From Acidobacteriota bacterium (GTDB lineage Bacteria; Acidobacteriota; JAAYUB01), in contig JAAYUB010000095.1 in NCBI GenBank assembly GCA_012517875.1, positions 787 to 64,786 of the forward strand: a stretch of DNA of 64,000 nucleotides. The letters run 5' to 3'. Positions 5,211-44,532 of this stretch are shown in pieces. Position numbers and translations under genes: made by a program. The notes beneath the pieces are model-generated. The model saw only the letters and a program-made list of their open reading frames with translations, made no database searches and had not been told where the DNA came from. Positions within the stretch are counted from its first letter, which is position 1; every line of letters starts with the position of its first letter.

Positions 5211-7700
<2,490 letters not shown>

Positions 7701-7963
7701 AACCTTATCTCCTCTGAGCCGATGAATCATCCACGTCCAGCAGACCGGCTGTCCGGCGCGTCCCCTCCGATCGTCCGTCGGACCTTGTGCACCAACCGCA
7801 GGGGCGCCGCCGGATGAGCGTCCAGAAGCGCCATTTGTCGCCGGCACATCCGGCCAAGGAACCGTCTCTGAAACTGAGCATTATTGTGAGAGAGGGCCGT
7901 GAAGTCAAGTCATTTCGGGCAACCGCCGCCGGAGCGGCCCGTCCGCGGCCGCCGGCAAGCCGG

Positions 7964-10721: not shown

Positions 10722-11201
10722 GGCCGGGTTGCGGAAGCGGAAGACGGCTCTGACTCGATCGGCTGATCCGGGCACTCCAACGCCTGGTTGAGGCAGTCGT
10801 ATTCCTGCCGCATCAGCGCCAGCCCGCCCAGGCCGAACGAGGCGACAGCCACCCCCTGAAACTCATCCCCCAGGACGACGAGCAGAACCAGCCCGAGCAG
10901 CACCGCGAAGGAAAACAGCAGGATGGAGCCTGTGACCACCCATTGGAACAGACTGACGCGGCGGGTCAGCTGCTTCCGCCGGAGGTCCACGATCCGACTG
11001 TTATCCCGCAGTCCCTCCAGGGCCATGGCGAATCCGTACAGGAGCAGGGCGAAGCACAAGTCTTTCGTGAATTCCTCCCGGCGCCCGAACACCATGGCCT
11101 GGAGCTGATAGTACACTCCCCCCACATAGAAGGCGAATTTCAGATGGCTCAATCCGTGAAACACGCGGTTGAAACGATTCCAGCCGGCAGATTTTTCCAT
11201 G
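10718..11201 (-). CDS. Small integral membrane protein (about 3 TM helices), hypothetical; first gene of the rSAM cassette.
   Basis: Start MEKSAGWNRF... has an AAGGAA SD 4 nt upstream. Hydrophobic segments are FAFYVGGVYYQLQAMVFG, LCFALLLYGFAMALEGL and VSLFQWVVTGSILLFSFAVLLGLVLLVVLG. The stop overlaps the rSAM start. The six-frame ORF extends to 11410 but its N-terminal part lacks coding character. Confidence 0.6.
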
Positions 11202-11455: not shown

Positions 11456-11968
11456 TTATTGCGTCCGTTGGACCCGGCGGGCGATCGCGGTGGGCTCGTC
11501 CATCCACTCGAAGAACTTGTCGGGGTCCAGGCGGACGTGGAGCACGGCCGCGTCGCCGTCGTCCACCGAGACGATCATGAGCCGCACCTCGTTCTTCGCA
11601 GACTGCACCCAGATGAGCTGGGCCTCGTTGCGGGCGGGGCAGCGCTGGCAGACCATCCGGGCCCAGCCGGGCCCGAGGCACGCGCGGGCACCCGCCTCCA
11701 GCTCGCCGAACCCGGCCGCGGCTTCGCCGGGCACATCTTCAAAGACGGCGAACTGAAGCCCCTTGACTCCCTCCGGCTTGGCGAAGCGCACGGCGAGCCC
11801 CACCAGCCAGCCGCAGGGGATATCGGCCTTCGCGGTGCCGAGCTGCTGTTCCACGTGGCGGACCAGCCGGTCGAACTCCTTGCCGCCGGCCTGAACAGGC
11901 GCCGCCGCAAACAGCGCCAACCCGAGCAGCAGGAAGGTCGGCAGGAGACGTCCAACCGCGGAGCGCAT
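11456..11968 (-). CDS. Secreted hypothetical protein, DUF4252-like paralog (second copy).
   Basis: It has a signal peptide MRSAVGRLLPTFLLLGLALFAAAPVQA. It is similar in length and pattern to the upstream DUF4252-like gene (FD.L...E shared motif, C-terminal VRLMIVSVDD vs LAVINIVGPID). There is a 1-nt gap to the upstream gene. It is the last gene before the terminator. Confidence 0.65.
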   Translation of the reverse strand: MRSAVGRLLPTFLLLGLALFAAAPVQAGGKEFDRLVRHVEQQLGTAKADIPCGWLVGLAVRFAKPEGVKGLQFAVFEDVPGEAAAGFGELEAGARACLGPGWARMVCQRCPARNEAQLIWVQSAKNEVRLMIVSVDDGDAAVLHVRLDPDKFFEWMDEPTAIARRVQRTQ

Positions 11969-11969
11969 G

Positions 11970-12563
11970 TCAGTGGCTCCCGGACCGGTGGTCGTCCTTT
12001 TCCAGCTCCAGGTCGGGGATGCCGATGTGTCCCTCGAGATCCATCAGCATCTCCATGTCGATGGGACCCACGATGTTGATCACCGCCAGCTCCCTGTCCT
12101 CGAAAGCGATGATGGCCAGCCCCTCGATGGCGTCACCTTTGAGCAACATGAAGATGTCGACGTTCTCGCTCCCTTTGCGGCTGCGCACGCCCACGAGCCG
12201 GCTCCATTCCGGCGCGCGGAGCTGGCTGCGGACCGCCTCGATGTCGGCGTCGGTGAACTGGCCGTCCGCGCCGAAGGTGTAGGCCTTCACGTAGATCCCC
12301 TTGAGCGAGTGGACCAGCTTGCGGACTGCGACTTCTTCCGGGTCCTTCTTGGACAGGAACGCGCCGGCGAACCGCAGGCTGTCGCCGTCGAGGGTGACGT
12401 CCACCACCTCGTCCGCCTTGGCCTCGAGGTGCCTGAGGGCGTCGAAATTGATCTGGGCCCCCTGGCCGGCTGCGGCGGGTGAAAGGGCCGCGAGTAGGAA
12501 CAGGGCGAATGCCAGAACCGACAAACGGAACAGGTATGGTTTCATGGTCTTCCTCCGTGTCAT
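11970..12563 (-). CDS. Secreted DUF4252-family-like protein (typically found downstream of ECF sigma/anti-sigma pairs).
   Basis: It has a signal peptide MKPYLFRLSVLAFALFLLAALSPAAAG and then a soluble domain. Gene order is sigma > anti-sigma > this gene. The family assignment is from memory of the DUF4252 context and was not searched. Confidence 0.65.
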   Translation of the reverse strand: MTRRKTMKPYLFRLSVLAFALFLLAALSPAAAGQGAQINFDALRHLEAKADEVVDVTLDGDSLRFAGAFLSKKDPEEVAVRKLVHSLKGIYVKAYTFGADGQFTDADIEAVRSQLRAPEWSRLVGVRSRKGSENVDIFMLLKGDAIEGLAIIAFEDRELAVINIVGPIDMEMLMDLEGHIGIPDLELEKDDHRSGSH

Positions 12564-12608
12564 TTCAGATCAAACCGTCAGATCCGGATCTCCGATGCAT
12601 CACCGAAG

Positions 12609-13022
12609 CTATGTGCGGGCGCGCTCCACGGCCCGCTCCCGGGCGGCGTTCATCTTGCGGCTGGCCAACCGCAGCGCCCGGATCAGTTCCTCTTTCAGTC
12701 GCGCTCCGTCCTCCCGTGACATCCCCGGGGGCAACCCGGTCAGCTCCGGCACCCCGGCCGCCGGGACGACAGGCGCCGCAGGCGGCTCCCCGGCCGGCTG
12801 GCTCGGCCACAGCCCGAACCGCCACTGGGCCCAGCTCCCCGCGGCCAGCAGCAGGGCGGCCGCCGCCAGTCCGCGGACCAGGCGGCCTCGCGATGCCAGC
12901 CGGCGCGACGTGCGCCGGTCGGCGTCAAGCCGGGCCACCCGGGCCATCACCCGGCGGGTGAACTCGGGTCCCGGATCCTCGGGCGCCAGCGCCCGGCGCA
13001 GCTCGTCGTCCAACGGGGTCAT
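12609..13022 (-). CDS. Anti-sigma factor (single-pass membrane protein, RskA/ChrR-like N-terminal domain).
   Basis: The start ATG at 13022 overlaps the TGA of the sigma gene (ATGA coupling). The N-terminal cytoplasmic region is MTPLDDELRRALAPEDPGPEFTRRVMARVARL. There is one TM helix LVRGLAAAALLLAAGSWAQW. The Pro/Ala-rich periplasmic tail is composition only. Confidence 0.7.
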   Translation of the reverse strand: MTPLDDELRRALAPEDPGPEFTRRVMARVARLDADRRTSRRLASRGRLVRGLAAAALLLAAGSWAQWRFGLWPSQPAGEPPAAPVVPAAGVPELTGLPPGMSREDGARLKEELIRALRLASRKMNAARERAVERART

Positions 13023-13522
13023 GAGAGCACCTCCGGCGTATCGGCCACCCGGGCTCGGAGCCAGCGCACGGACCGATGGATCCGGCTCTTCACCGTATCG
13101 ACGGGCACTCTCAGCGTCCGGGCGATCTCCCGGGGCCGGAGGCCCTCCTGGTAGCGGAGTACCATCACCAGCCGCGACGTCGCGGGCAGCCGGCCCACCA
13201 GTTCGCGGAGTTGGCCCAGCAGCAGCGCCTCGCCCTGCTCGGGTGCCGAGGCCAGGGTCGGCACCTCGAGCTCCACGAGCTCCGGCTGGCGGCGGCGGAC
13301 CCGCCACGCGTCCACCACGCACCGCGTGGTCACCTGACGCAGCCAGTGGCGCAGGTGCGCCGCGCTCTGGATGCCTTCCCCGTGCTGGTACAATCGGATG
13401 AACACGTCCTGGGCCACCTCTTCGGCCAGTTCCCGGTCCCGCAGGAATCGGAGCGCCAGGCTGAACACCCATGCCTGGTGTTCCCGCACCACCTGTTCGA
13501 ATTCGGCCGGGCTCCACTCCAT
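13019..13522 (-). CDS. ECF (sigma-70 family, group IV) RNA polymerase sigma factor.
   Basis: Region 2 is FLRDRELAEEVAQDVFIRLYQH. The region 4 HTH is REIARTLRVPVDTVKSRIHRSVRWLR. It is ~167 aa from MEWSPAEF (ATG 13522, GGGAGAGG SD 7 nt upstream). The alternative start at 13552 lacks an SD. Confidence 0.85.
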   Translation of the reverse strand: MEWSPAEFEQVVREHQAWVFSLALRFLRDRELAEEVAQDVFIRLYQHGEGIQSAAHLRHWLRQVTTRCVVDAWRVRRRQPELVELEVPTLASAPEQGEALLLGQLRELVGRLPATSRLVMVLRYQEGLRPREIARTLRVPVDTVKSRIHRSVRWLRARVADTPEVLS

Positions 13523-13564
13523 CGGTTTGCCTCTCCCGGGCACGTCCTGCATTCTTCATACCTA

Positions 13565-17231: not shown

Positions 17232-17351
17232 TCCCCTGAGTTCCGCCGCCTGAACCGCGCCGTGAGCCGTGGGCGGAGGGAACCTCCGCCCCCACTCCCC
17301 CCGGCGGGCCGGCGCCGTCCGTGCCTGCCGCCGCCTGCTGCAGGAGCTGCC

Positions 17352-18647
17352 ATGTTAAATTGCATTCTTCGAACACACCCCGGTGATGGTCCGCGCCGCC
17401 GGACGGTCCGCTTTGCGGCGCTGGCGCTCGGCCTGGCCGCAGCCGTCGGCCTCGCCGCCGCAGTGGATGCTTCCGCCGCCCCCACCCGCCTCACCCTTCG
17501 CGAGGTGTTCGAGCTGGCCGTCGCGGCGAATCCCAACCAGGCTGTCCTGGCGGCCCGCCGCGCCGAAGCTGAAGCCGAGCGGCGCCGGGCCGCCGCCTAC
17601 CCTAATCCCGAGGTGGAAATCACGGCCGGGTGGGCCGACGGACGGGATACCGGCGCCGGTTCGCGCGCTACCATGGGTGCGGAGTTCGCCCAGCCCATCG
17701 AATGGCCGGCGGTGCGTCGGGCCCGCGCAGCCGCTGCCGCTGCAGGCGTCGACGCCGCGGCATGGTACGCCGCCTTGGACCGGGCGGTGCTCGCCGCCGA
17801 GGTTCGGCGGGCGTTCGGCACGGTCCTGTTCCGCCAGCGGATGCTGGCGCTGGCTCGCGAGGACGCGGCCAACGCCGCCGAAATCGAAGCCATCGTCGAC
17901 CTCCGCGTCGCAGGCGGAGAAGCGGCGGAACTCGACCGGATCAAGGTCCGCCTGGAGCGGCTCCGGGCGGACCGGGCCGTCGGGGCGGAGGCCGGCCGGC
18001 TCGCCTCCGCCCGGACCGGGCTGGCTGCGCTGTGCGGCGACACTCTCCCTGCGGATTTCGAGGTGGCGGACGCCTGGCCGGACAATCCGGAACCCGCCGT
18101 CGTAAATCCGGCTGCGGCCTGGACGGACCATCCCGCCCTGCGCCTGCAGGAGGCGGTCCGCGCCCGCCACGAGCAGGAACTGCGGTTGGCCGAGGCCGCC
18201 GGCCGGCCTGCGCTCGCACTGGGGCTGGCCGCGGCGCGGGAATATGACGCCAACAGCCTGGGCGGCTTCCTCCGGCTGGAGTTGCCCGCCTGGGACCGGA
18301 ATGCCGGCGGTATCGCCGCCGCCGCGGCCCGCTGCGATGAGGCGGACGCGCAGCTGGTCAGGCTGCGGCGGGATATCCGCCGCGACGTGGCGCTGGCCGT
18401 CCAGGGCCTGGAACAGGCCCTGACGCGACGGGCCGCGTTCGAGGGCGGCCTGCGCCAGGCGGCCGCCGAGGCGTACCGCATCGAAACCCTGCGCTACCGC
18501 GAGGGGGAGGTGGATTTCCTCCACCTGCTGGATACCTGCCGCACCGCCCGGCAGGTCGAAGTGGAGTACCTCCTCAGCCAATTCGACGTCCAGATGGCCC
18601 GGGCCGAACTCGACCGGGCCCTGGGCAAAGGAGACGTGGAGCCATGA
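17352..18647 (+). CDS. czcC: Outer membrane efflux protein (TolC/CzcC family) of a heavy-metal RND system.
   Basis: It has a signal peptide and Ala/Arg-rich coiled-coil repeats typical of the outer membrane factor family. The GGAG SD is 7 nt before ATG 17352. The stop overlaps the next start (ATGA at 18644-18647). Confidence 0.8.
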   Translation: MLNCILRTHPGDGPRRRTVRFAALALGLAAAVGLAAAVDASAAPTRLTLREVFELAVAANPNQAVLAARRAEAEAERRRAAAYPNPEVEITAGWADGRDTGAGSRATMGAEFAQPIEWPAVRRARAAAAAAGVDAAAWYAALDRAVLAAEVRRAFGTVLFRQRMLALAREDAANAAEIEAIVDLRVAGGEAAELDRIKVRLERLRADRAVGAEAGRLASARTGLAALCGDTLPADFEVADAWPDNPEPAVVNPAAAWTDHPALRLQEAVRARHEQELRLAEAAGRPALALGLAAAREYDANSLGGFLRLELPAWDRNAGGIAAAAARCDEADAQLVRLRRDIRRDVALAVQGLEQALTRRAAFEGGLRQAAAEAYRIETLRYREGEVDFLHLLDTCRTARQVEVEYLLSQFDVQMARAELDRALGKGDVEP

Positions 18648-19900
18648 TCCGACATACTGGATTCCGATTCTTCCTGCTCTTGCTCGCCGCAGCCGCCGGC
18701 CTGGCCGCCGCCGGCTGTGGGGGCGCACCGCCGGCCGCCACGCCGACCGAGGAGCACCACCACGAGGAGGAGGCGGATGGGCCCCTGCACCTGACCCGGG
18801 AGGCGATGCAGGCCAACGGCGTCCGGGTGGAGGCAGCCCGGCCGCAGGCCCTGGACGCGGCCGTCACCTATCCCGGCCGGGTTACCTTCGATACCGAACG
18901 GATGGCCCACGTGAGCGTCCCCGTCTCCGGCCGGGTGGCCGAGGTGCGGGCGCGCCTCGGAGACTCCGTCGCCCGCGGCGACGTGCTCTTGGTGGTGGAC
19001 AGCGTCGCCCTGGGCCAGGCCCAGAGCGACTACCTCCAGCGCCGCACCCAGGTGCAGTCGGCCCGCACCGCCCTGGAGGTGGCCCGCACCGCCGCCGAGC
19101 GGGCCGAGCGCCTCCTGGCGGAGAAGGGGATTTCGGTGGGCGAGTACCAGCGCCGTGACGGCGACCGGCGCAAGGCCGAGGCCGACCTCCAGGCAACCGA
19201 GGCCGCCGAACGGGCCGCCGCCGACCAGCTCCGCCTGTGGGGCATGGCGCCGGCCGACATCGAGCGGCTCGCCCGCACCGCCCAGATCGAGCCGCAGTAC
19301 GTGGTCCGGGCGCCCGTCGCCGGAGAGGTGGTGGAGCGCCACGCCACCCTGGGCGAGGTGGTGGGGCCGGAGCGAGAGGCGGTCTTCCTGCTTGCGGACA
19401 TCCGCACCCTCTGGGTGCTGGCCGACGTCCCCGAATCCGAAATCCAGCATTTCAGAACCGGCCAGGCGGCGTCGATCACCGCCCCGGCGCTCGGCGGCAT
19501 CACCGTGGCCGGCACGGTGACCTTCATCCCGCCCGCGGTGGATCCGGCCACGCGCACCGTGCCCGTCCGCCTCGAGGTGGGCAGCAGCGGACTCTCTCTC
19601 AAGGCCGGCATGTTCGTGGAGGTGCGTTTCACCCCGGCGGGAGGCCCCGCCTCCCGACTGGCCGTGCCCGCCGACGCGATCCAGTCCGTGGACGGCCAAC
19701 CGGCTGTTTTCCTGGAATTGGCCGATGAAGCGGGTGCGTTTCGGCCCCGGTTCATCCAGCCCGGGCCGGCGACCGGCGGGCTCGTCCCCATCGCCGCCGG
19801 CTTGCAGGCCGGCGACCGGGTGGTGGTGACGGGCGCATTCGTCCTCAAGGCCCAGTACGAAAAGGCGCTGATGGAAGGCAAGACTTGTTCAGGTCATTGA
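18644..19900 (+). CDS. czcB: RND efflux periplasmic adaptor subunit (CzcB/CusB-like membrane fusion protein) with a His-rich N-terminus.
   Basis: The lipoprotein-like N-terminus is LLLLAAAAGLAAAGCGG. His/Glu-rich TEEHHHEEEADG follows. It has the MFP family architecture (beta-barrel/lipoyl/alpha-hairpin) and is translationally coupled to czcC. Confidence 0.85.
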   Translation: MIRHTGFRFFLLLLAAAAGLAAAGCGGAPPAATPTEEHHHEEEADGPLHLTREAMQANGVRVEAARPQALDAAVTYPGRVTFDTERMAHVSVPVSGRVAEVRARLGDSVARGDVLLVVDSVALGQAQSDYLQRRTQVQSARTALEVARTAAERAERLLAEKGISVGEYQRRDGDRRKAEADLQATEAAERAAADQLRLWGMAPADIERLARTAQIEPQYVVRAPVAGEVVERHATLGEVVGPEREAVFLLADIRTLWVLADVPESEIQHFRTGQAASITAPALGGITVAGTVTFIPPAVDPATRTVPVRLEVGSSGLSLKAGMFVEVRFTPAGGPASRLAVPADAIQSVDGQPAVFLELADEAGAFRPRFIQPGPATGGLVPIAAGLQAGDRVVVTGAFVLKAQYEKALMEGKTCSGH

Positions 19901-19949
19901 CGCGGCTACAGCAGAGGCCGGCCCGGCCGGCTTCGGGAGAAGTGCAGCC

Positions 19950-22900
19950 ATGTTGAACCGGATCATCGATTTCAGCATCAGCCACCGCTGGCTGGTGCTG
20001 GTGCTCACCGGGCTGGGGGCCGCCTACGGCGTTTTCGCCCTGCTCCGCCTGCCTATCGACGCGGTGCCCGACATCAGCAGCCGGATCGTCCAGATCACCA
20101 CGGTGTACCCGGCACTGGGTCCCACCGAGATGGAAAAGCAGATCGCCTTCCCCCTGGAGACCGCCCTGTCGGGCATCCCCGGGCTGACGGCCACCCGGTC
20201 GCTCTCGCGCAACGGATTCTGTCAGGTGGAGGCGGTCTTCGGCGACGATGTCGACATCTACTTCGCCCGCCAGCAGGTGCTGGAGCGGCTGGCGGAAGCC
20301 CGCCGGCGGATCCCCGCCGAGGCCGAGCCCCGCCTCGGCCCAGTCACCACCGGCTTGGGGGAGATCTACGTCTACATCATCGAATATGACCGCTCCGCCA
20401 CGCCGACGGAATCCGGCGGACCGGCCGGCTCGGGCTGGCAGTCCGACGGCACATACCTGACTCCCGAGGGGGAGCGGCTGGCGGACGAGCGGGACCAGCT
20501 CGCCTATCTCCGCACCGTCCAGGAGTGGGTGGTGAGCCCGCAGCTGCGCACCGTGCCCGGCGTGGCGGGCGTGGACACCATCGGCGGCTTCGAGCGGCAG
20601 TTCCTGGTGCAGCCGGACCCGGCGCGCCTCGTCGCCTACGGCGTCACTCTCCCCGAGATCCTGGCCGCCCTCGAGCGGAACAATGCCAGCGTGGGCGCCG
20701 GCACCATCGACCAGGGGGGCGAGTCGTACGTTGTGCGCTCCGAGGGACGGGTCACCCGGCCGGAGGAGATCGGCCACATCGTCGTCGCCGCACGCGGCGG
20801 CACCCCGGTCCACCTGCACGACGTGGCCGCCATCGGGGCGGGCCGCGAGCTCCGTCTTGGTGCGGCCAGCGAGAACGGCGGCGAGGTCGTCGTGGGCACG
20901 GTGCTCATGCTGCTGGGCGCCAACCCCCGGACGGTCACCGAGGCGGTCACCGCCCGTGTGGCGGAGATCCGGGACAGCCTGCCGCCGGGCATCCGTCTGC
21001 GGGCGGTGCTGGTACGCACCGAGCTCGTGGACAAGACCATCACCACCGTGCGGGAGAACCTGTTCCTGGGCGCGGTGCTGGTGATCGCCGTGCTCCTTCT
21101 GCTGCTCGGCAACCTGCGTGCGGCCCTCCTCACCGCCATGGCCATTCCCATTTCCATGCTGTTCACCGCCATCGGTATGGAGCGCGCCGGGCTGAGCGCC
21201 AACCTCATGAGTTTGGGCGCCATCGATTTCGGCCTCATTGTGGACGGCGCCGTGATCATCGTGGAGAACTGCCTGCGCCGTCTCGGCGAGCGGCAGCGCA
21301 AACTGGGGCGGCCGCTGACAACGCCGGAGCGGCTGGCGGTGACGGGCGCCGCCTGCCGCGAGGTGCGCGCGGCCACCGCCTTCGGCGAGGCGATCATCAT
21401 TCTGGTCTACGTCCCCATTCTGGCCCTGGCCGGCGTCGAAGGAAAAATGTTCCACCCCATGGCCCTGACGGTGATCTTCGCCCTCACCGCGGCGTTCGTC
21501 CTGTCGCTCACCGCCGTGCCGGCCCTCGTGGCCCTGGTGGTGCGCGGTCCCGTGCGGGAAACGGAGAATCGTTTGATGGCCGTCCTCAAGCGCGCCTACG
21601 CGCCGCTGCTGGACCTGGCGGTGCGCGGACGCTGGGTCGTGGTGGGCGCCGCCGCGGTCGTGTTCGCCGCCGCGGGGCTGCTGTTTGCCTCGCTGGGGCA
21701 GGAGTTCGTCCCCCAGCTCGACGAGGGGAATCTGAGCCTCCAGTCCATCCGGGTCCCCAGCATCGCCCTGAATCAATCGATGGCGCTGCAGGCCCAGGTG
21801 GAACGGGCGGTCGCCCGCCTGCCCGAGGTGGAGCTCATGTACTCGAAGACGGGCACCGCCGAGGTGGCCTTCGATCCGATGCCGCCGAACTTCTCCGACG
21901 GCTACATCATCCTCAAGCCCCGCGCCGCCTGGCCGGACCCCGGCCTCTCGAAGGCCGGCCTGATCGCGAAGATTCAGGCGGCGGTGGAGCCCGTGCCGGG
22001 CAACCTGTACGAGTTCAGCCAGCCCATCGAGCTGCGCATGAGCGAGCTGGTGGCCGGCGTGCGCGGTGACCTGGCGGTGAAGGTGTTCGGGGACGACTTC
22101 GAGACGCTGGAGGAGATCGCCCGGCGGATCCTGCAGGTCGTCCAGTCCGTGCCCGGCGCCGCCGATGCCCGGATGTCGCAGCACGAGGGCTCCCCTACCC
22201 TGAACATCGCCGTGGACCGGGCGGCGGCCGCCCGGTACGGGTTGAACGTAGCCGACGTCCAGGATCTGGTGGCCACCGCCATCGGCGGCCGCGAGGCGGG
22301 CGAACTCTACCAGGGCGATCGGCGGTTCCCCATCGTGGTCCGGCTGCCCGAGGCGCTGCGCGCCGACGTGGCGGCCATCCGCCGGCTGCCGGTGCCCCTG
22401 CCATCCGGAGAGGGAGGCGGAGCGGGCGAGGCGGCGGCTCTCCGGGGTTCAGTTCCGCTGGAGGCGGTGGCCCGGATCGAAGCCGCCTCGGGTCCCGGCC
22501 AAGTGAACCGGGAGAACGGCAAACGCCGGACGACGGTCCAAGCCAACGTCCGCGGCCGCGACCTCGGATCGTTTGTGGCCGAGGTCCGCGACCGGGTCCA
22601 CCGCGAGGTGCGCCCGGCGCCCGGCACCTGGATCGAGTGGGGCGGGCAGTACCAGAATCTGCTGGCGGCGCGGGACCGCCTGCTCGTGGTGGTGCCGGCC
22701 TGCTTCCTGCTGATCTTCCTGATGCTCTTCGCCACGTTCGGGTCCGCGCGCGACGCGGCCATGGTCTTCACGGGCGTGCCGCTGGCGCTCACCGGCGGCG
22801 TGCTGGCTCTGTGGCTCCGGGGCATCCCGTTCTCCATCTCGGCGGCCGTGGGCTTTATCGCCCTGTCGGGCGTGGCGGTGCTCAACGGCCTGGTGATGGT

Positions 22901-23201
22901 GACCCACATCAACCAGCTGCGCCGGAAGGGGATGGATCTCGCGGCGGCGATCCGCGAGGGTGCGCTCGCGCGGCTGCGGCCGGTGCTCATGACCGCGCTT
23001 GTGGCCGCCCTGGGCTTCGTGCCCATGGCGGTGGCCACGGGAACCGGCGCCGAGGTCCAGCGGCCGCTGGCCACGGTGGTGATCGGCGGAATATTGTCGT
23101 CCACCGCACTCACCCTGCTCGTGCTGCCGGCGCTGTACCGGTTGTGGCACCGGGACACGAGGCTGGAGGCTCGTTCCCGGTCCAGTGGTTCGTGCTCGTA
23201 A
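19950..23201 (+). CDS. czcA: Heavy-metal efflux RND permease (CzcA/CusA family, HME-RND).
   Basis: It is a 1083-aa protein with 12 TM helices. It has the CzcA-family pattern including the DFGLIVDGAVIIVEN region and large periplasmic loops. The GGGAGAAG SD is upstream of ATG 19950. Confidence 0.9.
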   Translation: MLNRIIDFSISHRWLVLVLTGLGAAYGVFALLRLPIDAVPDISSRIVQITTVYPALGPTEMEKQIAFPLETALSGIPGLTATRSLSRNGFCQVEAVFGDDVDIYFARQQVLERLAEARRRIPAEAEPRLGPVTTGLGEIYVYIIEYDRSATPTESGGPAGSGWQSDGTYLTPEGERLADERDQLAYLRTVQEWVVSPQLRTVPGVAGVDTIGGFERQFLVQPDPARLVAYGVTLPEILAALERNNASVGAGTIDQGGESYVVRSEGRVTRPEEIGHIVVAARGGTPVHLHDVAAIGAGRELRLGAASENGGEVVVGTVLMLLGANPRTVTEAVTARVAEIRDSLPPGIRLRAVLVRTELVDKTITTVRENLFLGAVLVIAVLLLLLGNLRAALLTAMAIPISMLFTAIGMERAGLSANLMSLGAIDFGLIVDGAVIIVENCLRRLGERQRKLGRPLTTPERLAVTGAACREVRAATAFGEAIIILVYVPILALAGVEGKMFHPMALTVIFALTAAFVLSLTAVPALVALVVRGPVRETENRLMAVLKRAYAPLLDLAVRGRWVVVGAAAVVFAAAGLLFASLGQEFVPQLDEGNLSLQSIRVPSIALNQSMALQAQVERAVARLPEVELMYSKTGTAEVAFDPMPPNFSDGYIILKPRAAWPDPGLSKAGLIAKIQAAVEPVPGNLYEFSQPIELRMSELVAGVRGDLAVKVFGDDFETLEEIARRILQVVQSVPGAADARMSQHEGSPTLNIAVDRAAAARYGLNVADVQDLVATAIGGREAGELYQGDRRFPIVVRLPEALRADVAAIRRLPVPLPSGEGGGAGEAAALRGSVPLEAVARIEAASGPGQVNRENGKRRTTVQANVRGRDLGSFVAEVRDRVHREVRPAPGTWIEWGGQYQNLLAARDRLLVVVPACFLLIFLMLFATFGSARDAAMVFTGVPLALTGGVLALWLRGIPFSISAAVGFIALSGVAVLNGLVMVTHINQLRRKGMDLAAAIREGALARLRPVLMTALVAALGFVPMAVATGTGAEVQRPLATVVIGGILSSTALTLLVLPALYRLWHRDTRLEARSRSSGSCS

Positions 23202-23240
23202 TTCGTAATCGTCATCGTAATCTTGATCGTAATCGAGATT
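23197..23240. repeat. Four TCGTAAT(C/T) direct repeats on a 6/12/12-nt spacing, overlapping and following the czcA stop codon.
   Basis: The sequence is ctcgtaat TCGTAATCgtca TCGTAATCttga TCGTAATCgaga ttcg. There are three perfect 8-mers at 23203, 23215 and 23227, plus a degenerate copy spanning the TAA stop. Confidence 0.5.
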
Positions 23241-23744
23241 CGTTCCCGCCATACGGACATCGGACTTCGGACCGCCGTAGGCCGCGCCCGCCGGGCGCGG
23301 CCCGCTCTCCCGGCACGGTTGAGCGATTCGCCCATGGCGCCGACTCGCGTCACGGTGACGACCTATCGAAACCCGCCATCTCCTGCCGAGTTTCACGGCG
23401 CCCGTCCGGCGGACGGGCGCTACGGCGCAGCGACAGGAGCTACTTGACCGCGGCCGAACCCCGGGTTGTACACGGGGCTACCCGTACTGGACCTGCTGCG
23501 CAGGTCCTCCGTACGGCTGCGTAATTGAAGAGCGGGACCGGAGCACGAGTGGGACCGGCAATCCGTCACAGGATCCCAAACAGCCAATCACGATGAAACC
23601 AGGGTCAATAACCAGAAAATGAATACTGACGAATGGAAAACGACCAATTACAGATGAAACGAACCCTTTATGATCTTTGTGGCTTTGTGGTGAACACCCC
23701 CGTCCGGGACGTCTGACGGCCGGCCCCGAGCGCGGGCGGCATCC

Positions 23745-26114
23745 CTATTCGTTTTTCCGGCGCTTCACCAAGGTCACCCGGTTGCCGTCCACGGTATCGG
23801 GCTCGTAGCGGACCTCGTCCATCACCTCGCGGACGAGGAACAGGCCGATGCCCCCCACCGGCTGGTCCGGCGTGGCTTGGCCGTCGTACTTGCGGCTGGC
23901 CGCCTCGAAATCGAACGGTTGGCCGTAGTCGGCAATGACGATCCGCAGCACGTCGCCGGCGGTGCAGAGACGCAGCTCGAACGTCTCCGCGCTCGCCGGT
24001 CCGTAGGCGTGTTCGATCACGTTGGAGACCACCTCGTCCACGGCCAGGACGATCCGCTCTGCCTCGCTGCGGGTGAAGCCCGCCTCCCTGGCCACCGACT
24101 CGGTCATCATGGCCACCCGCTCCAGCACGCCGGTGCGGGCGGGGAGCGCCATCTGGATCACCTCCTCGGGCCGACCGGCCGGAACGGCGGCTGCGGTCGC
24201 CCCGTCCCGCCGGATGAGGGTCACCAGGGTGATGTCATCGGGCTGGGGCTGGTCGCCGGCGAACGCCGACACCGCCGCCACGACAGCGTCCGCCATCTCC
24301 CGGGCCGCCGCCGCCGGCGCGGCACCGACCGCGTCGCGGAGACGAGCCATGCCGTATTCTTCCTCCCGTGCGTTCTGGGCGTCGGTCACGCCGTCGGTGT
24401 ATATGACCAAGGCGTCGCCCGGCGTCAGTGCCAGCTCCATGACCTCGTAGTGCGCGCCCGGCATCACGCCCAGCGGGATCCCCGGGTTGGGCCGGATCTC
24501 CTCGGTCCGGCCGTCGGCGCGGCGGAGCACCGGCGGATTGTGCCCGGCGCTGACCAGCCGCGTCCGGCCGGTGTCCGGATGGTACTCGGCGAAGAGAAGG
24601 GTCACGAACAGGCCCGCCTCGTTGTCTTCGAACAGCAGATGGTTGGCCCGCCGCGCGATCTCCGCCGGCGAGTAGCCGCGCCCGGCCATGGCGCGCACGA
24701 GCAGCCGGGCCATGGCCATGAAGAAGGCCGCCGGGGCCCCCTTGCCGGACACATCGGCCACGACGATGCCCACCGCGCCGCCGGGAAGGCGGAGGAAGTC
24801 GAAGTAGTCGCCGCCCACCTCCCGGGCCGGCCGGTAGTAGCCGTACACGTCGAGGCGGTCCTGAAGCTCCGGGAACGGCGGAAACTGCCGGGGCAGGATG
24901 CTGCGCTGGATGTCGGCGGCGATCATCAGCTCCTGGCGGTACCGCTCCTTCTGGGCGGTGCTGGTCTTGACGTTCTCGATCTGGTCCAGGATGGCCTGGC
25001 CGAGGCGGTTGAAGGAGCCCGCCAGGCGGCGGATCTCCAGGGGGCCCTTGTCTTCGGCCAATCGCTCGGCATAGTTGCCCTGGGAGTAGCTGTCAGTCTG
25101 ACCGAGGAACCGGGCCAGCGGTTTGGTGACCGAGTCAGACACCGCCAGCAGCAGCACCACGATCAACCCTACGATGACGATGGCGATGGGGATCACAGTG
25201 TTTTTCAGCTGGATCAGGGGCTGCAGCAAGACGTCGCGCGGCGCGATGATGGCCAGGGTCCAGCCGATGGATTCGATCCGGGCGTCGATGACCAGCGACG
25301 GCTTGCGCGTGTACGGGTCGGTCATGTCCACGAAGTTGGGCGCCGGATCCTTCAGCAGCCGGGCCAGATCCTTGAGGTGCGGGTCGGGAGACCGCTCGGC
25401 GATGTCCCAGAAGCTCTCGTTGGACATCAGCTGGCCGGAGACCTGGCGGCTTCGGCCGATGAGTCGGCCCGCCTCCGTCACCATGAAAGCCTGGCCGCCG
25501 CGCCGCGCGGCGAACCGTTCCAGCCGATCCACCAGCTCGGCCAGGGCGATATCCACCGTGGCCACGCCCACCAGTTCGCCCTTGCGCCAAACGGGGTAGG
25601 CGTAGGTGGTCATTAGGATGTCGCCGCCGCCGGTGTCCAGGTACGGCTCGGTCCAGTGCCCCCGCCCGTCGGCCAGCGGCTGCCGGAACCAGTCCCAGAC
25701 CGTGTAGTCGTAGGCGGGATCGGCCAGTGACTGGAATTTCAGGTCGCCGCCGGGGGCGCGGCAGTAATAGGGGGCGTAGCGTCCCAGCGGCGTCTTGTCC
25801 GGAACGAAGGAGATTGTGCTGCCGTAGACGCCCGGATTCCGCGAGAACGTGCCTTGAAGCAGAAGGTCAACGGCCTCGGGGGTCAGCGTCTCCATGCTGC
25901 CCACCGAGGTGGCGATCCCTTCGGCCACCTGCCGGGACGATTCGAACAGGATATCGAACTCCCGCGCGTGGGCATGGGCCAGCTCGTACGATTCCCGGTT
26001 GATCTGGGTCAGGACGGTGTGCTCGCTCTGGCGGAAGCTCAGCAGCAGCAGGGCGCCGAACAGGACCAGGATGGCGGGGATCAGGACCAGCAGCAGGCGG
26101 GCCTTGATGCTCAT
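23745..26114 (-). CDS. Transmembrane sensor phosphatase/kinase fusion: Cache-like periplasmic domain, TM, HAMP, PP2C (SpoIIE/RsbU-type) phosphatase and a C-terminal RsbW-like HATPase_c serine kinase (HsbR-like partner-switching regulator).
   Basis: The TM helices are LLLVLIPAILVLFGALLLLSF and IPIAIVIVGLIVVLLLAVS, flanking a ~270-aa extracytoplasmic domain. The HAMP-like segment is PLARFLGQ...IRRLAGSFNRLGQAI. PP2C motifs are GGDYFDF, GIVVADVSGKGAPAAFFMAMAR, LVSAGHNPP, IYTDGVTDA and DDITLV. The C-terminal HATPase N/G boxes are VDEVVSNVIEHAY and GGIGLFLVREVMDEV. Confidence 0.85.
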   Translation of the reverse strand: MSIKARLLLVLIPAILVLFGALLLLSFRQSEHTVLTQINRESYELAHAHAREFDILFESSRQVAEGIATSVGSMETLTPEAVDLLLQGTFSRNPGVYGSTISFVPDKTPLGRYAPYYCRAPGGDLKFQSLADPAYDYTVWDWFRQPLADGRGHWTEPYLDTGGGDILMTTYAYPVWRKGELVGVATVDIALAELVDRLERFAARRGGQAFMVTEAGRLIGRSRQVSGQLMSNESFWDIAERSPDPHLKDLARLLKDPAPNFVDMTDPYTRKPSLVIDARIESIGWTLAIIAPRDVLLQPLIQLKNTVIPIAIVIVGLIVVLLLAVSDSVTKPLARFLGQTDSYSQGNYAERLAEDKGPLEIRRLAGSFNRLGQAILDQIENVKTSTAQKERYRQELMIAADIQRSILPRQFPPFPELQDRLDVYGYYRPAREVGGDYFDFLRLPGGAVGIVVADVSGKGAPAAFFMAMARLLVRAMAGRGYSPAEIARRANHLLFEDNEAGLFVTLLFAEYHPDTGRTRLVSAGHNPPVLRRADGRTEEIRPNPGIPLGVMPGAHYEVMELALTPGDALVIYTDGVTDAQNAREEEYGMARLRDAVGAAPAAAAREMADAVVAAVSAFAGDQPQPDDITLVTLIRRDGATAAAVPAGRPEEVIQMALPARTGVLERVAMMTESVAREAGFTRSEAERIVLAVDEVVSNVIEHAYGPASAETFELRLCTAGDVLRIVIADYGQPFDFEAASRKYDGQATPDQPVGGIGLFLVREVMDEVRYEPDTVDGNRVTLVKRRKNE

Positions 26115-26115
26115 G

Positions 26116-26442
26116 TCAGCTCAGTCCGGCGGTATTGGCGACGATGGTGAACATCTTCAGGAAGCCGGAGATCTCGAGGATCTCCAGAACCTGCGGCTGG
26201 GGCCGCGCCAGCACCACGCCACCGTCGAGCGGCCGGACGGCCTTGAGCGCGATGAGCAGCACACGCAGCCCGGCGCTGTTCATATACGGGACGTCGGACA
26301 GGTCCATGGCCAGCCACCGCGCGCCCCCCGCCAGTTCCTTCCGGACGGCGGCTTCGAAGTCGTCGACGGTATGGGCGTCTACGCGGCCCTGCGGCGCGAG
26401 GACTGTCCACTTGTCACCAACGCTGGAGACTTCCACCTGCAT
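26116..26442 (-). CDS. STAS-domain anti-sigma factor antagonist (SpoIIAA/RsbV/HsbA-like).
   Basis: It is a 108-aa protein, MQVEVSSVGDKWTVLAPQGRVD...LSDVPYMNSAGLRVLLIALKA..., with a conserved phosphorylatable Ser in the DVPYMNSAGL context. It has a GAGGTGG SD. The stop abuts the start of the sensor fusion at 26114. Confidence 0.85.
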   Translation of the reverse strand: MQVEVSSVGDKWTVLAPQGRVDAHTVDDFEAAVRKELAGGARWLAMDLSDVPYMNSAGLRVLLIALKAVRPLDGGVVLARPQPQVLEILEISGFLKMFTIVANTAGLS

Positions 26443-26513
26443 GGCCCCACCTCGGAATACCGGGATAGTCCAATCATAGGGATTTTGCCGCTGGAAGGCA
26501 AACTGAATCGGGA

Positions 26514-27518
26514 TCAGCCGGCCGCCAGGATCGCCTTCAGTTTGTCGGCGTACCGCCGGCTCTCGGCGTCGCCGGTGACGAACTCGACGGCCTCGGGCCG
26601 GCTCACGCCCAGGCCCAGTTCCACCGCCCGGGCGATCTGCTCCTGCCGGAAGACGGGCGTTCCCATGATCGCGTCGTTGGCGCCCACTTCGCGCAGCACC
26701 GCCAGTCCCACGGCGTCGACGGCCACCCGGTCGATGCCGGCCAAAATCACGCCGGCCTCGGCCTTCTTCCCTTCCATGGGACCACCGTCGACGAAGCACT
26801 CCACGCCGTCGAGCACGACGAGCTTCGGGGTGTAGGCCAGGTTGATCTCGGCGATCATGCGGCGCATGTGTTCGGTGTTGCCGTGGAGCTGCCGCATCAG
26901 GCTGCGCGGGGTTATGCCCACCGCCAGTTTCAGCGACATGGTGAACACGCCGCCGTACTGGTGGGTTTTGAGGCAGGGCGTGATCACGATGTATTCGGCC
27001 TCCCGGACCGGCCGCGGGATGGTGAAGCCGTTCTCCCAGTGCAGACCCGGCGCGCTGAACGGCAGCCAGTCGGTGTCGGGGAGCGCCCCGAAGTCGATCA
27101 CATCGAACCGCTCCTCTTTCGCCATCTCCGGGATGCCCTTCCGGGCGAGCACCTCGGGCATCTTGGCCGGGCCGCACCGGTCGCCCACGGCGATGGCGCC
27201 CGCGTCGCGGCGGCGCAGCTCCCGCACGATGGCGAGCAGGGTGTCGTTGTGGGTGGAGCCGGGGGCCGGGTCGGCGGTGTTGAAGTTCGGCTTGACGAGC
27301 ACCCGCCGACCATGTGGCGGCTCGAACTCGAGCAGCTTCATCACCTGCTCCACGCCCGCCCGGCGGTCGGTGGTCTTGCACAGGGCGACCCGGGCGGCAC
27401 GGGGGGCGTCAGCCCGGACCGTTCCCGTCAGCGAGCCGAGCAGCGGCCAGCCCGCCAGCCCCACCACGGTTCCTTTCATGAAATCCCGCCGATTGATCCC
27501 GTCCTTCGTCCACCGCAT
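26514..27518 (-). CDS. TAT-exported DUF362-domain protein.
   Basis: The twin-arginine motif is INRRDFMKGTVVGLAGWPLLGS. The rest matches the DUF362 pattern (family recalled, not searched). Confidence 0.7.
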   Translation of the reverse strand: MRWTKDGINRRDFMKGTVVGLAGWPLLGSLTGTVRADAPRAARVALCKTTDRRAGVEQVMKLLEFEPPHGRRVLVKPNFNTADPAPGSTHNDTLLAIVRELRRRDAGAIAVGDRCGPAKMPEVLARKGIPEMAKEERFDVIDFGALPDTDWLPFSAPGLHWENGFTIPRPVREAEYIVITPCLKTHQYGGVFTMSLKLAVGITPRSLMRQLHGNTEHMRRMIAEINLAYTPKLVVLDGVECFVDGGPMEGKKAEAGVILAGIDRVAVDAVGLAVLREVGANDAIMGTPVFRQEQIARAVELGLGVSRPEAVEFVTGDAESRRYADKLKAILAAG

Positions 27519-27696: not shown

Positions 27697-28539
27697 GAGG
27701 CGATCATGAAATTTGCCGCTGCCGCGCTGGCCGTCCTGCTGCTGGCCGCCATCGCGTCCGGCGACGGGGGAAGCCCCGCCGTCGCTATCACCAAACCCGG
27801 GATGTACACGTCCGGCAAATGGACCTACACGCTGGAGGTCCGCAAGGGCGGCTATCAGACCGAGAACCGCACGGGCACGCTGACTTACGACGGCAAGCGG
27901 CTGGACCTCGACCCGGAGATCAACGACCACGTCCGCACCCCGTGGGGAACGATGTACTGGGTGGGGAAGCGGCGGATCACCTGGGGGTCCAACGGCTGGA
28001 TGCCCCAACGCCACCCCAAGGAAAGGCGCAGCGGCAAGGAATTGCAGGTGCCGGGTCTGCCGCCGGACGAGTACGACCAGTTAAAGTCAAATGAGACGGC
28101 CGCGCCCGTGCCGTCGACGGCGACCCCCGCTTCAATCCCGCCGGCCGCGCCGCCGCAGCCCCTGCCGCCGGCCGCTCCGGCCCAACCCATGGTGCCGGGA
28201 ACGGATATTGTTCTTGGGCGCGAGGCCACCGGTCACTACATCGAGGCGGTGGTGGGGCAGACGATCACCGTCCGGCTGGCCGGCAATCCCACCACCGGCT
28301 TCGGATGGGCCGCCCTACCCCCCGACGACCCGGCGGTGGCGGCCATGGGCAACAGCGAGTACCAGCAGAACCCCGCGGACGCCGGCCGCGTGGGCGCCGG
28401 CGGAACCTACATTTTCCGCTTCCGCGCCGAACGTCCGGGCGCGGCTAAGCTCGTCATCCAGTACCGCCGCCCCTGGGAACCGGGGCCCACCGAGGTCTTC
28501 CACGTCCTGGTCCGGGTGGCCCGGCCGGCGCAGCCGTAG
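27697..28539 (+). CDS. Secreted protein with a C-terminal chagasin-family (MEROPS I42) cysteine-peptidase inhibitor domain.
   Basis: It has a signal peptide MKFAAAALAVLLLAAIA and a Pro-rich linker. The C-terminal domain has the I42 hallmark GNPTTGFGW plus YIFRFRA beta-strand motifs. The CAGGAGG SD is before ATG 27697. The six-frame ORF starts far upstream (26842) in Arg-rich sequence. Confidence 0.75.
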   Translation, partial: EAIMKFAAAALAVLLLAAIASGDGGSPAVAITKPGMYTSGKWTYTLEVRKGGYQTENRTGTLTYDGKRLDLDPEINDHVRTPWGTMYWVGKRRITWGSNGWMPQRHPKERRSGKELQVPGLPPDEYDQLKSNETAAPVPSTATPASIPPAAPPQPLPPAAPAQPMVPGTDIVLGREATGHYIEAVVGQTITVRLAGNPTTGFGWAALPPDDPAVAAMGNSEYQQNPADAGRVGAGGTYIFRFRAERPGAAKLVIQYRRPWEPGPTEVFHVLVRVARPAQP

Positions 28540-29052: not shown

Positions 29053-30471
29053 TCAATGTGCCGACGGCTCCGGCAATGTGTCGAGGATCGCGGGGCGCGC
29101 GCCGAACGGCGCGGTGATCACCCGGGCCGGTCGCAGCATCCCGGTGTGGCGGGTGATCATCTGCTCCGTCCGCCGGGCGATCTCGGCAAGCTGGCCGACG
29201 GGGAAATCCCGCAGCCGGCAGACCGGCCGGGTGATGGAGAACTCATTGTAGTACCGATAGTCGCGGTGCAGGATCTCGAGGCCGAACGCCGCCGGATCCT
29301 TCCACGGCCGCGTGCCGGGCAGCGGCACGAAGACGCCGAAATCGGCGCTGGTGATCAGGTCGTCCCGGAACAGGCCGTCCAGCTTGGTCAGCGCGTCCGC
29401 CGCCTCAACCGGGTCGTCCCCCGGATGGCCGATCATCCACTCTGCCTTGATCATGAAATCGTGGTCCCGCAGGGCCCGGCACATGGCGATGGTCCGCGAC
29501 CAGGGGCGCTTTTTGCCCATGGCCGCCAGCACCTTCTCGGACGAGTTCTCGATGCCGAGCCAGATGGTGCCGACGCCCGCCTGGCGCAGCGCCGCCAGAG
29601 TCTCCCGCTTCGCCGCGTCCAGGGGCTCCACCGTCAGGTTCATGAAGAACGCCGGCGGCAGGCACTGCCGCACGCCCCGCAGGCCGCGGATGAGCCGGGC
29701 CAGCTCCGGCGAGGCGAGCCACTGGGAGCTGTCCTCGATGCCCATCATCCGGGCGCTGTAGCGATCGGCCAGACCGGCGATCTCCCCGACGAGCCGCTCC
29801 ATCGGCAGGCTGCGCTCCCGGCCCCAGAACGCGGCCTCGGCGCAGAACGCGCACCGGTACCGGCAGCCGCGGTGGATCATGCCGTAGACCTGGCACCGCT
29901 GGATGAACTCGGCCGGGAACAGCCCGAAGTCCACGGGCGGCAGCGCGGTCAGGTCACCGGGGGGGCGCGGCGACGTGCGGACGGTGGCGCCGTCGCGCCG
30001 GAACGTGAGGCCCCGGACGCCCGCCGGGTCCCGCCCCGCCTCGCGGGCGGCCAGCCATTCGGCCATCGTCCACTCGCCTTCGCCGCGAACCACGCAGTCG
30101 ACCGCGGGATCGGCGGCGGTCTCGGCGTCGGTGAAGGTGACATGGGGACCGCCGATGACGGTGACGATGTCCTCCCGAAACGCCTTGACCAGACGGAGTA
30201 TCTCGATGCTGGTGTGGTAGCCGATGGTGTACGGGCAGCCGACGCCCACCACGTCGGGCTTGAATTCGGTCAGCACCGACTCGATGATGGAGCGAATGAC
30301 CGCCGGCGGCGTCACGTCGGCCACCGCCGCGTACGACAGGGGCAGCACCGCGACCGGCCAGCCGTTGGCCCGCAGGAACGACCCGATCTGGGCCAGCCCG
30401 CGGGGGAACACCATCCGGTTCGGCTGGCTGGCCAGTCGGGGCGGTTGGATCAGCAGGATACGCTGTTTCAT
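29053..30471 (-). CDS. B12-binding-domain radical SAM protein (class B), stand-alone.
   Basis: The N-terminal cobalamin-binding-like Rossmann region is MKQRILLIQPP...VVGVGCPYTIGYHTSIEILRLVKAFREDIVTVIGGPHVTF. The radical SAM motif is CRYRCAFC. It is 472 aa with no neighbouring same-strand gene. Confidence 0.85.
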   Translation of the reverse strand: MKQRILLIQPPRLASQPNRMVFPRGLAQIGSFLRANGWPVAVLPLSYAAVADVTPPAVIRSIIESVLTEFKPDVVGVGCPYTIGYHTSIEILRLVKAFREDIVTVIGGPHVTFTDAETAADPAVDCVVRGEGEWTMAEWLAAREAGRDPAGVRGLTFRRDGATVRTSPRPPGDLTALPPVDFGLFPAEFIQRCQVYGMIHRGCRYRCAFCAEAAFWGRERSLPMERLVGEIAGLADRYSARMMGIEDSSQWLASPELARLIRGLRGVRQCLPPAFFMNLTVEPLDAAKRETLAALRQAGVGTIWLGIENSSEKVLAAMGKKRPWSRTIAMCRALRDHDFMIKAEWMIGHPGDDPVEAADALTKLDGLFRDDLITSADFGVFVPLPGTRPWKDPAAFGLEILHRDYRYYNEFSITRPVCRLRDFPVGQLAEIARRTEQMITRHTGMLRPARVITAPFGARPAILDTLPEPSAH

Positions 30472-39883: not shown

Positions 39884-39917
39884 GCCGTTCTCCTCGTCAC
39901 CCGCCGCCGCGCGAGGG

Positions 39918-41342: not shown

Positions 41343-41346
41343 GGTG

Positions 41347-44523: not shown

Positions 44524-44532
44524 GGACTCCCC

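Follow-up and report, generated by a model that had tools for sequence, protein, structure and literature searches.

A STAS gene abutting a gene for a membrane-bound phosphatase-kinase fusion

The 64,000-nucleotide stretch of DNA analyzed here, referred to as the window (Acidobacteriota bacterium, GenBank assembly GCA_012517875.1, contig JAAYUB010000095.1, positions 787 to 64,786 of the forward strand), carries on its minus strand a gene pair encoding a small STAS protein and a 789-amino-acid protein that combines a predicted extracytoplasmic Cache sensor with a PP2C serine phosphatase and an RsbW-type kinase. The genes and the segments of their products are as follows (window coordinates, strand, feature).

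26473-26501, minus: promoter-like site, TTGCCT, 17-nucleotide spacer, TATGAT (consensus scan), in the 72-bp gap upstream of the STAS start
26116-26442, minus: STAS gene, 108 amino acids, anti-sigma-factor-antagonist type; ATG at 26442, TGA stop at 26118-26116
26277-26275, minus: AGC codon of Ser56, the predicted phospho-acceptor of the STAS protein (alignment to SpoIIAA)
23745-26114, minus: gene for the membrane sensor, PP2C phosphatase, and RsbW-type kinase, 789 amino acids (open reading frame, ORF, call)
26034-26096, minus: first transmembrane segment (TM1), residues 7-27; Kyte-Doolittle 19-residue window maximum 3.15, within model helix 3-72
25248-26018, minus: dCache_1 extracytoplasmic sensor, residues 33-289; Pfam dCache_1 (residues 33-289, E = 2.7e-12) and MCP-like_PDC_1 (residues 85-194, E = 1.1e-26)
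25137-25205, minus: second transmembrane segment (TM2), residues 304-326; Kyte-Doolittle maximum 3.39, continuous model helix 298-343
24990-25133, minus: HAMP domain, residues 328-375; Pfam HAMP, E = 1.5e-07; model helices 298-343 and 359-380 with a connector between them
24897-24965, minus: helical linker between HAMP and phosphatase, residues 384-406; model helix with the motif TTAQKER...EL.IA..IQ.SILP
24216-24785, minus: PP2C/SpoIIE serine phosphatase, residues 444-633; Pfam SpoIIE, E = 1.7e-56
23763-24143, minus: RsbW/SpoIIAB-type GHKL serine kinase, residues 658-784; Pfam HATPase_c_2, E = 1.5e-25, without a preceding DHp/HisKA domain

A preliminary description of this DNA had placed the STAS gene directly against the longer gene and had read the latter as encoding, in order, a transmembrane segment, a Cache-like domain, a second transmembrane segment, HAMP, PP2C, and HATPase_c. 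Both points are borne out: the two ORFs lie at the coordinates listed, a single base separates the STAS TGA from the ATG of the 789-amino-acid gene, and every one of the domains was recovered by scanning with hidden Markov models (HMMs), the matches in the gene pair being far beyond chance. The 1-nucleotide gap points to co-transcription. A ribosome-binding site, GAGGTGGGG, lies upstream of the STAS ATG, and the promoter-like site farther upstream is a pattern match alone, from a scan in which 4.5 kb yielded 3 sites where 0.5 would be expected.

The gene that directly precedes the STAS gene on this strand encodes a DUF362 protein (26514-27518) with a twin-arginine-type signal, RRDFMK. It was considered as a third component of the locus and rejected, the promoter-like site lying within the 72 bp between the two genes and no DUF362 gene standing beside the pair in the close relatives L001, L085, L086, and L087.

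Hydropathy analysis gave two hydrophobic segments and no more, at about residues 7-27 and 304-326, between which the Cache domain lies. The AlphaFold2 model, for which 23 homologues were used (mean pLDDT, or predicted local distance difference test, 82.9), shows a long N-terminal helix, a double-PDC fold, a TM2-HAMP helix, the linker 384-406, a PP2C fold, a second linker (639-649), and the kinase domain. The latter is compact alpha/beta in the model, and the linker that joins it to the PP2C domain is disordered and of low confidence. The motif of the linker between HAMP and phosphatase is conserved in the homologue alignment. The best Foldseek match of the whole model was 3ke6, the RsbU and RsbW domains of Rv1364c (E = 1.5e-21, 373 columns), which was also the best sequence match over the PP2C-kinase region (E = 2.7e-19).

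In public records, the 789-amino-acid protein is 100% identical to an NCBI protein from an Acidobacteria metagenome-assembled genome labeled "SpoIIE family protein phosphatase," and its homologues carry the JGI name "sigma-B regulation protein RsbU." A 79% identical homologue, P0003, is encoded on a 55.8-kb NCBI contig; its alignment lapses into unrelated stretches and then regains register, and this pattern suggests frameshift errors in the entry more than a true variant.

Catalytic motifs and phospho-acceptor serine

Motif conservation was scored in an alignment of the 23 homologues, which are 27 to 78% identical. The C-terminal domain has the three boxes of the kinase family, N (DEVVSNVIEHA, residues 693-703), G1 (ADYGQPF, 728-734), and G2 (GGIGLF, 754-759), with E694, N698, and D729 invariant and G731, G754, G755, and G757 at least 90% conserved. 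In the alignment with RsbW (6m36, E = 5.5e-15), all three boxes are in register; the match to SpoIIAB is weaker. The phosphatase domain has the metal-binding motifs GGDYFD (434-439), DVSGKG (454-459), YTDGV (572-576), and PDDIT (625-629), in which D436, D454, D626, and D627 are invariant and D439 and D574 at least 90% conserved. It can be aligned with the corresponding domains of Rv1364c, SiaA, and RssB, and its fold matches that of SiaA-PP2C (6k4e) with a Foldseek target-normalized TM-score of 0.84.

The small protein matches Pfam STAS (PF01740, E = 7.2e-19) and the NCBIfam anti-sigma factor antagonist model TIGR00377 (70.4 bits, cutoff 53.45). Ser56, in the motif YMNSAGLRVLL, takes the position of SpoIIAA Ser58 in three PDB alignments, including those to 1auz and 1th8, and the equivalent column holds Ser in 61 of the 61 STAS ORFs linked to relatives. 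Both weaknesses that the preliminary description had thought possible, a degenerate C-terminal domain lacking the N, G1, and G2 boxes and a STAS protein lacking the phosphorylatable Ser, are thus absent. The intact boxes argue for retained ATP binding.

Conservation of the pair and its split counterparts

In four Acidobacteriota-type loci (L001, L085, L086, and L087; 39 to 64% identity), a STAS gene of 107 to 130 codons lies immediately upstream of the fused gene. The pair is therefore kept in 5 of 5 close loci, the window included, while all flanking genes differ, as expected of a portable two-gene cassette. For a wider sample, a scan at one genome per species gave at least 80 further loci, the close Acidobacteriota relatives having been collected separately. 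The sources of the listed loci include Bacteroidota, Desulfobacterota, Verrucomicrobiota, Pseudomonadota, Bacillota, Spirochaetota, Synergistota, and others, and ORFs called in them were searched with HMMs built for this analysis. The Cache-PP2C-kinase architecture occurs in at least seven phyla and in dozens of database clusters.

The 58 Cache-PP2C loci fall into three groups according to where the kinase is encoded.

Kinase fused to PP2C, 24 loci: STAS gene within 100 bp in 13
Separate RsbW-like gene of about 140 codons beside the phosphatase gene, 11 loci: STAS gene within 600 bp in 10
No adjacent kinase, 23 loci: STAS gene within 600 bp in 3

A STAS gene within 600 bp was thus present in 23 of the 35 loci with a fused or adjacent kinase versus 3 of the 23 without one (Fisher P = 1.1e-4). 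The split loci with the gene order PP2C, RsbW-like, STAS, such as L012 and L052, are classical three-gene partner-switch modules. Their existence shows the fused domain to be the kinase of the classical modules, and fused and split loci together indicate that the window protein is most aptly viewed as the joined product of the PP2C and RsbW-like genes that come first in such a module.

Several relatives carry additional genes next to the fused gene or its STAS partner. A gene for an NMT1-like periplasmic substrate-binding protein lies directly upstream of the fused gene in 13 loci altogether (positions 6994-8004 in L002 and L003, 6959-7957 in L054). In Desulfovibrio it overlaps the fused gene by 4 nucleotides, with no STAS gene nearby, and it is also found in many Bacteroidales loci. 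The NMT1-like protein may be a co-sensor that brings the ligand to the Cache domain. In L004 (positions 5499-8004), genes for a RelA_SpoT-type small alarmone synthetase, an HD_4 hydrolase, and an APH-type kinase immediately precede the fused gene and STAS gene in the same orientation; a RelA_SpoT-like neighbor is present in six Bacteroidales loci (L004 and five others), and (p)ppGpp metabolism may thus have some connection with the cassette in this group. In L086, a relative with 45% identity, a divergent 279-codon GGDEF gene (positions 5694-6533) adjoins the STAS gene, a single occurrence that recalls HsbD and SiaD.

Sensor domain and candidate ligand class

The closest sequence matches of the Cache domain in the PDB were soHK1S-Z6 (3lic, E = 4e-23), mmHK1S-Z3 (3lib, E = 6e-18), mmHK1S-Z2, and McpX (6d8v, E = 1.7e-12). 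By Foldseek, target-normalized TM-scores were 0.77 to 0.79 to 3li9, 3li8, and 3lib, 0.73 to 3lic, and 0.62 to 0.71 to PacA, PctD, and McpX. Of these, 3lib (receptor R1, which binds methylamines), McpX, PacA (7psg), and PctD (7prq) are amine-binding dCache_1AM domains (PMC10589655); they are among the closest matches, behind the uncharacterized 3lic, 3li8, and 3li9. Serine phosphatases with such sensors are also on record: dCache-SpoIIE phosphatases are a recognized receptor class (PMC4822843), dCache_1AM-SpoIIE phosphatases are listed as one (PMC10589655), and the Desulfovibrio inopinatus dCache_1AM Ser/Thr phosphatase R3 binds ethanolamine with a dissociation constant of 2.3 uM (PMC10589655).

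The predicted pocket of the window protein is formed by Y116, W142, F143, Y158, D160, M168, T170, and D188, all invariant or at least 90% conserved among the 23 homologues. The pocket was mapped with the McpX residue numbers given in PMC10589655, all five of which were confirmed against the aligned chain. Six mapped positions agree with the amine sensors, namely Y116 (McpX Y139, PctD W155), W142 and F143 (PctD F188 and Y189), Y158 (McpX Y177), M168 (PctD M215), and D188 (McpX D208, PctD D235), so that the aromatic-box-plus-Asp pocket of the dCache_1AM sensors is conserved; the other two differ and are taken up below. From these alignments, dCache_1AM membership of the domain is possible and unproven, and a small cationic or amine-type compound is the probable ligand and a reasonable lead. 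A dCache_1AA amino-acid sensor was rejected, the equivalent of the carboxylate-binding PctA R126 being absent: mapped by spacing, that position appears to be W140 here and W, K, Q, V, R, or L in the family.

Comparison with characterized partner switches

The preliminary description had likened the locus to HsbR/HsbA of Pseudomonas aeruginosa. The likeness holds as an analogy. In HsbR, as in CrsR of Shewanella oneidensis, a single chain runs from PP2C to a C-terminal RsbW-type kinase/anti-sigma domain, both activities are directed at a cognate single-domain STAS protein (HsbA or CrsA) from the adjacent gene, and the RpoS that these proteins control is encoded elsewhere (PMC6482189). It does not hold as family membership. 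The input of HsbR and CrsR, which are soluble proteins, is a cytoplasmic receiver phosphorylated through HptB (PMC6482189), whereas the window protein is membrane tethered, with a transmembrane dCache-HAMP input in place of the receiver. A Pfam scan found no Response_reg domain in the 789-amino-acid protein, which is not of the HsbR/CrsR family because the receiver that defines it is absent. The NCBIfam RssB-type match covers the PP2C part only (39 bits, cutoff 700).

Rv1364c of Mycobacterium tuberculosis (3ke6) is the sole solved fusion of an RsbU-type PP2C with an RsbW-type kinase and shares that fusion with the window protein. Its input is a cytoplasmic PAS domain and its STAS domain is in the same chain (PMC12143880), in contrast to the separate STAS gene, the lack of PAS, and the extracytoplasmic input predicted here. 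In SypE of Vibrio fischeri, one protein also holds a serine kinase and a PP2C phosphatase and acts on Ser56 of the STAS protein SypA (PMC8256260, PMC10120452). Unlike the window protein, SypE has the order kinase, receiver, phosphatase and a cytoplasmic input, and its genes belong to a polysaccharide locus.

On the sensor side, SiaA of P. aeruginosa likewise has two transmembrane segments, HAMP, and PP2C, and opposes the kinase SiaB on the antagonist-like SiaC (PMC7647112). The Sia system differs in its separate kinase, its Thr68 target in SiaC, and the diguanylate cyclase SiaD in the operon, compared with a fused kinase, STAS Ser56, and no GGDEF gene near the cassette in the window. With the NCBIfam SiaA equivalog NF038263, the HAMP-PP2C region alone aligns, and the score of 63.6 bits against a cutoff of 700 indicates that the protein is not a SiaA orthologue. 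For extracytoplasmic input there is a precedent in Chlamydia trachomatis RsbU, a periplasmic-sensor PP2C phosphatase driving a STAS partner switch (PMC4552016, PMC11619594; PMC8256260). There, RsbW is separate and soluble and there are two RsbV paralogues, the enzymes being unfused, unlike those of the window.

Search for a linked target

The preliminary description had also noted that no target sigma or anti-sigma factor is encoded nearby, the extracytoplasmic function (ECF) sigma gene at 13019 being more than 10 kb away, and had left the output open. This assessment stands. The gene is real and lies 10.2 kb from the cassette.

13019-13552, minus: ECF sigma gene

It is followed by a DUF4252 gene and a 170-codon ORF without a Pfam match (11456-13552, minus, for the set). 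The ORF is possibly its anti-sigma factor, and the set appears to be an independent regulatory cluster. As a linked target of the cassette this sigma factor was rejected: it is 10 kb off, has its own DUF4252 cluster, and relatives do not keep it near the cassette. No further sigma factor or partner-switch component was found among the scanned genes of the 64-kb window.

Linked sigma genes were also sought in 84 loci with an HMM seeded by the window ECF sigma, a search that group 3 sigma factors may escape; three ECF-type ORFs were found, 2 to 5 kb off and none adjacent. Clustering of neighboring ORFs, which covered 56 kinase-bearing loci, recovered STAS proteins (47 loci), separate RsbW-like kinases (20), the NMT1-like binding protein (13), and a few lineage-specific genes, with no sigma factor among the conserved clusters. 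Since no linked target was found in the window or its relatives, the output of the switch is not readable from gene context.

Model of the switch and competing explanations

Taking together the domain composition, the intact catalytic motifs, the conserved phospho-acceptor Ser, the gene pairing, the split versions, and the fold, we consider it probable that the STAS protein and the 789-amino-acid protein form a self-contained, ligand-gated partner-switch cassette. The larger protein would sit in the inner membrane with the dCache domain outside the cytoplasm and the HAMP, PP2C, and RsbW-type kinase domains inside. It is probably a dimer, because Cache receptors, HAMP bundles, RsbU-type PP2C domains, and RsbW are all established dimers (PMC12143880). 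In the presumed enzyme-substrate relation, the kinase domain would use ATP to place a phosphate on Ser56 of the STAS protein, and the PP2C domain would remove it. Ligand bound in the membrane-distal Cache pocket would act through TM2, HAMP, and the helical linker on the switch helices of the phosphatase, and in this presumed direction of control an extracellular ligand would set the ratio of phosphorylated to unphosphorylated STAS. Activation through a coiled-coil linker has been proposed for RsbU-type phosphatases with HAMP, PAS, GAF, and REC inputs (PMC12143880), and by analogy with that mechanism the linker 384-406 may have a signaling role. Most likely, by analogy with RsbW-RsbV, CrsR/HsbR, and Rv1364c, STAS in its unphosphorylated form would dock on the kinase domain and drive off a partner bound to it, for which we favor, as a plausible candidate, a sigma factor encoded elsewhere in the genome. 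A bolder version would have the fused RsbW-type domain act at the inner membrane as a genuine anti-sigma factor, an extracellular amine-type ligand switch the phosphatase in cis, and STAS then free the sigma factor; in our judgment it is unlikely.

Several observations weigh against a ligand-gated cassette of this kind. No STAS gene was found within 8 kb in 6 of the 24 fused Cache loci (including L002 and L003 from Desulfovibrio), so that the pairing has exceptions. In the window and 87 related loci, the genes conserved beside the cassette include none for a sigma factor, an FlgM-like protein, or a diguanylate cyclase, and the output step is drawn by analogy; phosphotransfer, dephosphorylation, and binding are likewise steps that we infer. 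With both opposing enzymes in one chain and a single substrate between them, the protein could just run a futile cycle. As for the amine ligand, two pocket residues depart from the amine sensors: T170 replaces the Ser of their motif, and D160 takes the place of a Tyr in PctD and PacA and of an Ala in McpX. Loss of amine binding upon single mismatches to the motif is reported (PMC10589655).

The competing explanation to be taken most seriously keeps the core switch and makes the STAS protein itself the output: one phospho-form would part from the membrane protein and bind something other than a sigma factor (a diguanylate cyclase, for instance, or an enzyme or a further anti-sigma factor), and the kinase domain would sequester no sigma factor. 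We regard it as a real, if not the leading, possibility, almost as likely as a sigma output. It has precedents in SiaC acting on SiaD, HsbA on FlgM or HsbD, and SypA, and non-sigma outputs are frequent in characterized membrane-PP2C or fused systems, namely SiaABC (PMC7647112), SypE/SypA and BtrV (PMC8256260), and HsbA with FlgM/HsbD (PMC6482189). The GGDEF gene of L086, the RelA_SpoT and HD_4 genes of the Bacteroidales loci, the scarcity of sigma genes in the 84 loci, and their absence from the conserved neighbor clusters are in keeping with it. On the other hand, the GGDEF and RelA_SpoT candidates are each restricted to one locus or lineage, the kinase domain is closest to the bona fide anti-sigma kinases RsbW and SpoIIAB, and the best-studied PP2C-then-RsbW proteins, CrsR, HsbR, and Rv1364c, bind sigma factors encoded elsewhere, so that an unlinked sigma gene is not informative here.

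Two further explanations concern the C-terminal domain. The HATPase_c_2 domain might not act on STAS at all, either exerting cis autophosphorylation or allosteric control of the phosphatase or binding without kinase activity, with phosphorylated STAS coming from another kinase. Some fused loci do have no nearby STAS gene (L002, L003, L028, L053, and L061), and there are the 23 Cache-PP2C loci without a linked kinase. Against this stand the invariant or highly conserved N, G1, and G2 boxes, the statistical link between an adjacent STAS gene and a kinase that is fused or next door, the split loci with their classical trio of PP2C, RsbW, and STAS, and the invariant phospho-acceptor Ser of the linked STAS proteins, and we hold this explanation to be improbable. 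Far less credible still is that the protein is a histidine kinase or a hybrid two-component protein with a PP2C domain and that the STAS gene is merely an unrelated neighbor. The C-terminal domain does give a weak Pfam HATPase_c match (25.1 bits, under the 26.4 cutoff), and NCBIfam histidine kinase models match across the HAMP region. These matches, however, span TM2 and HAMP only (residues about 274-393) and are far under their cutoffs, while the strong matches of the C-terminal domain are to HATPase_c_2 and RsbW. HisKA/DHp was absent from the Pfam scan, only the linker of about 11 low-confidence residues (639-649) separates PP2C from the ATPase domain, and the STAS gene stays with the fused gene in all five close loci although the flanking genes change. 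A sensor histidine kinase reading of the C-terminal domain was accordingly rejected.

Other features of the window

A 540-bp gap (23202-23744) separates the PP2C-kinase gene from a convergent RND efflux gene. It contains two GC-rich hairpins with perfect 11-bp stems (23280-23302 and 23398-23420) and an AT-rich patch (about 23570-23690) that is unusual in this 68% GC genome, along with short repeats of the CGTAAT type (23190-23233). The gap showed no canonical terminator. A sub-threshold Rfam match of the second hairpin to CRISPR-DR9 (23390-23423, 28.5 bits versus 45) was rejected, the match being a single-copy palindromic hairpin with no array.

Elsewhere, the window has two complete RND efflux operons (17262-23201, plus, and 39356-45771, minus), each with genes for an outer membrane factor, a membrane fusion protein, and an RND pump; a MarR regulator gene adjoins the second. 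Two genes encode B12-binding radical SAM enzymes (8751-10775, minus, and 29053-30471, minus), one of them 2.6 kb from the cassette, and a gene at 27721-28539 (plus) encodes a proline-rich region followed by a C-terminal chagasin-family peptidase inhibitor I42 domain.

Significance

No characterized Cache-HAMP-PP2C-kinase fusion was found in the searchable literature, a search outside which most subscription-journal papers fall, so that absence is unproven. That literature gives no characterized example of a single membrane protein in which an extracytoplasmic Cache input is joined to both of the opposing enzymes. Each part has a characterized precedent, in SiaA, Chlamydia RsbU, Rv1364c, CrsR, and the dCache_1AM phosphatase. 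The cassette is a variant of well-understood modules, present in public databases in under-annotated form and widespread, and is plausible rather than surprising. Its practical value is modest: the label "SpoIIE family protein phosphatase" can be improved upon, and a ligand class is at hand that can be tested.

Were the membrane anti-sigma version true, the locus would represent a one-protein transmembrane partner switch, widespread in Acidobacteriota, gut Bacteroidales, Desulfobacterota, and others, and an extracytoplasmic route to RNA polymerase unlike two-component systems or ECF anti-sigma proteolysis. Fused versions beside split ones offer a natural experiment on the fusion of a kinase with its opposing phosphatase, and the output could be sought in cultured relatives, namely Lysobacter sp. 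CA196 (L080), which has the fused form, Pseudoxanthomonas LjRoot125 (L078), which has the split form, and Desulfovibrio (L002 and L003), where no STAS gene is linked. If the ligand-gated cassette proposed here is right, a large group of receptors, with hosts among soil Acidobacteriota, gut Bacteroidales (Prevotella, Phocaeicola, and Muribaculaceae), sulfate reducers, Verrucomicrobiota, and some Gammaproteobacteria, would couple an outside chemical cue directly to a serine phospho-switch with no histidine kinase.

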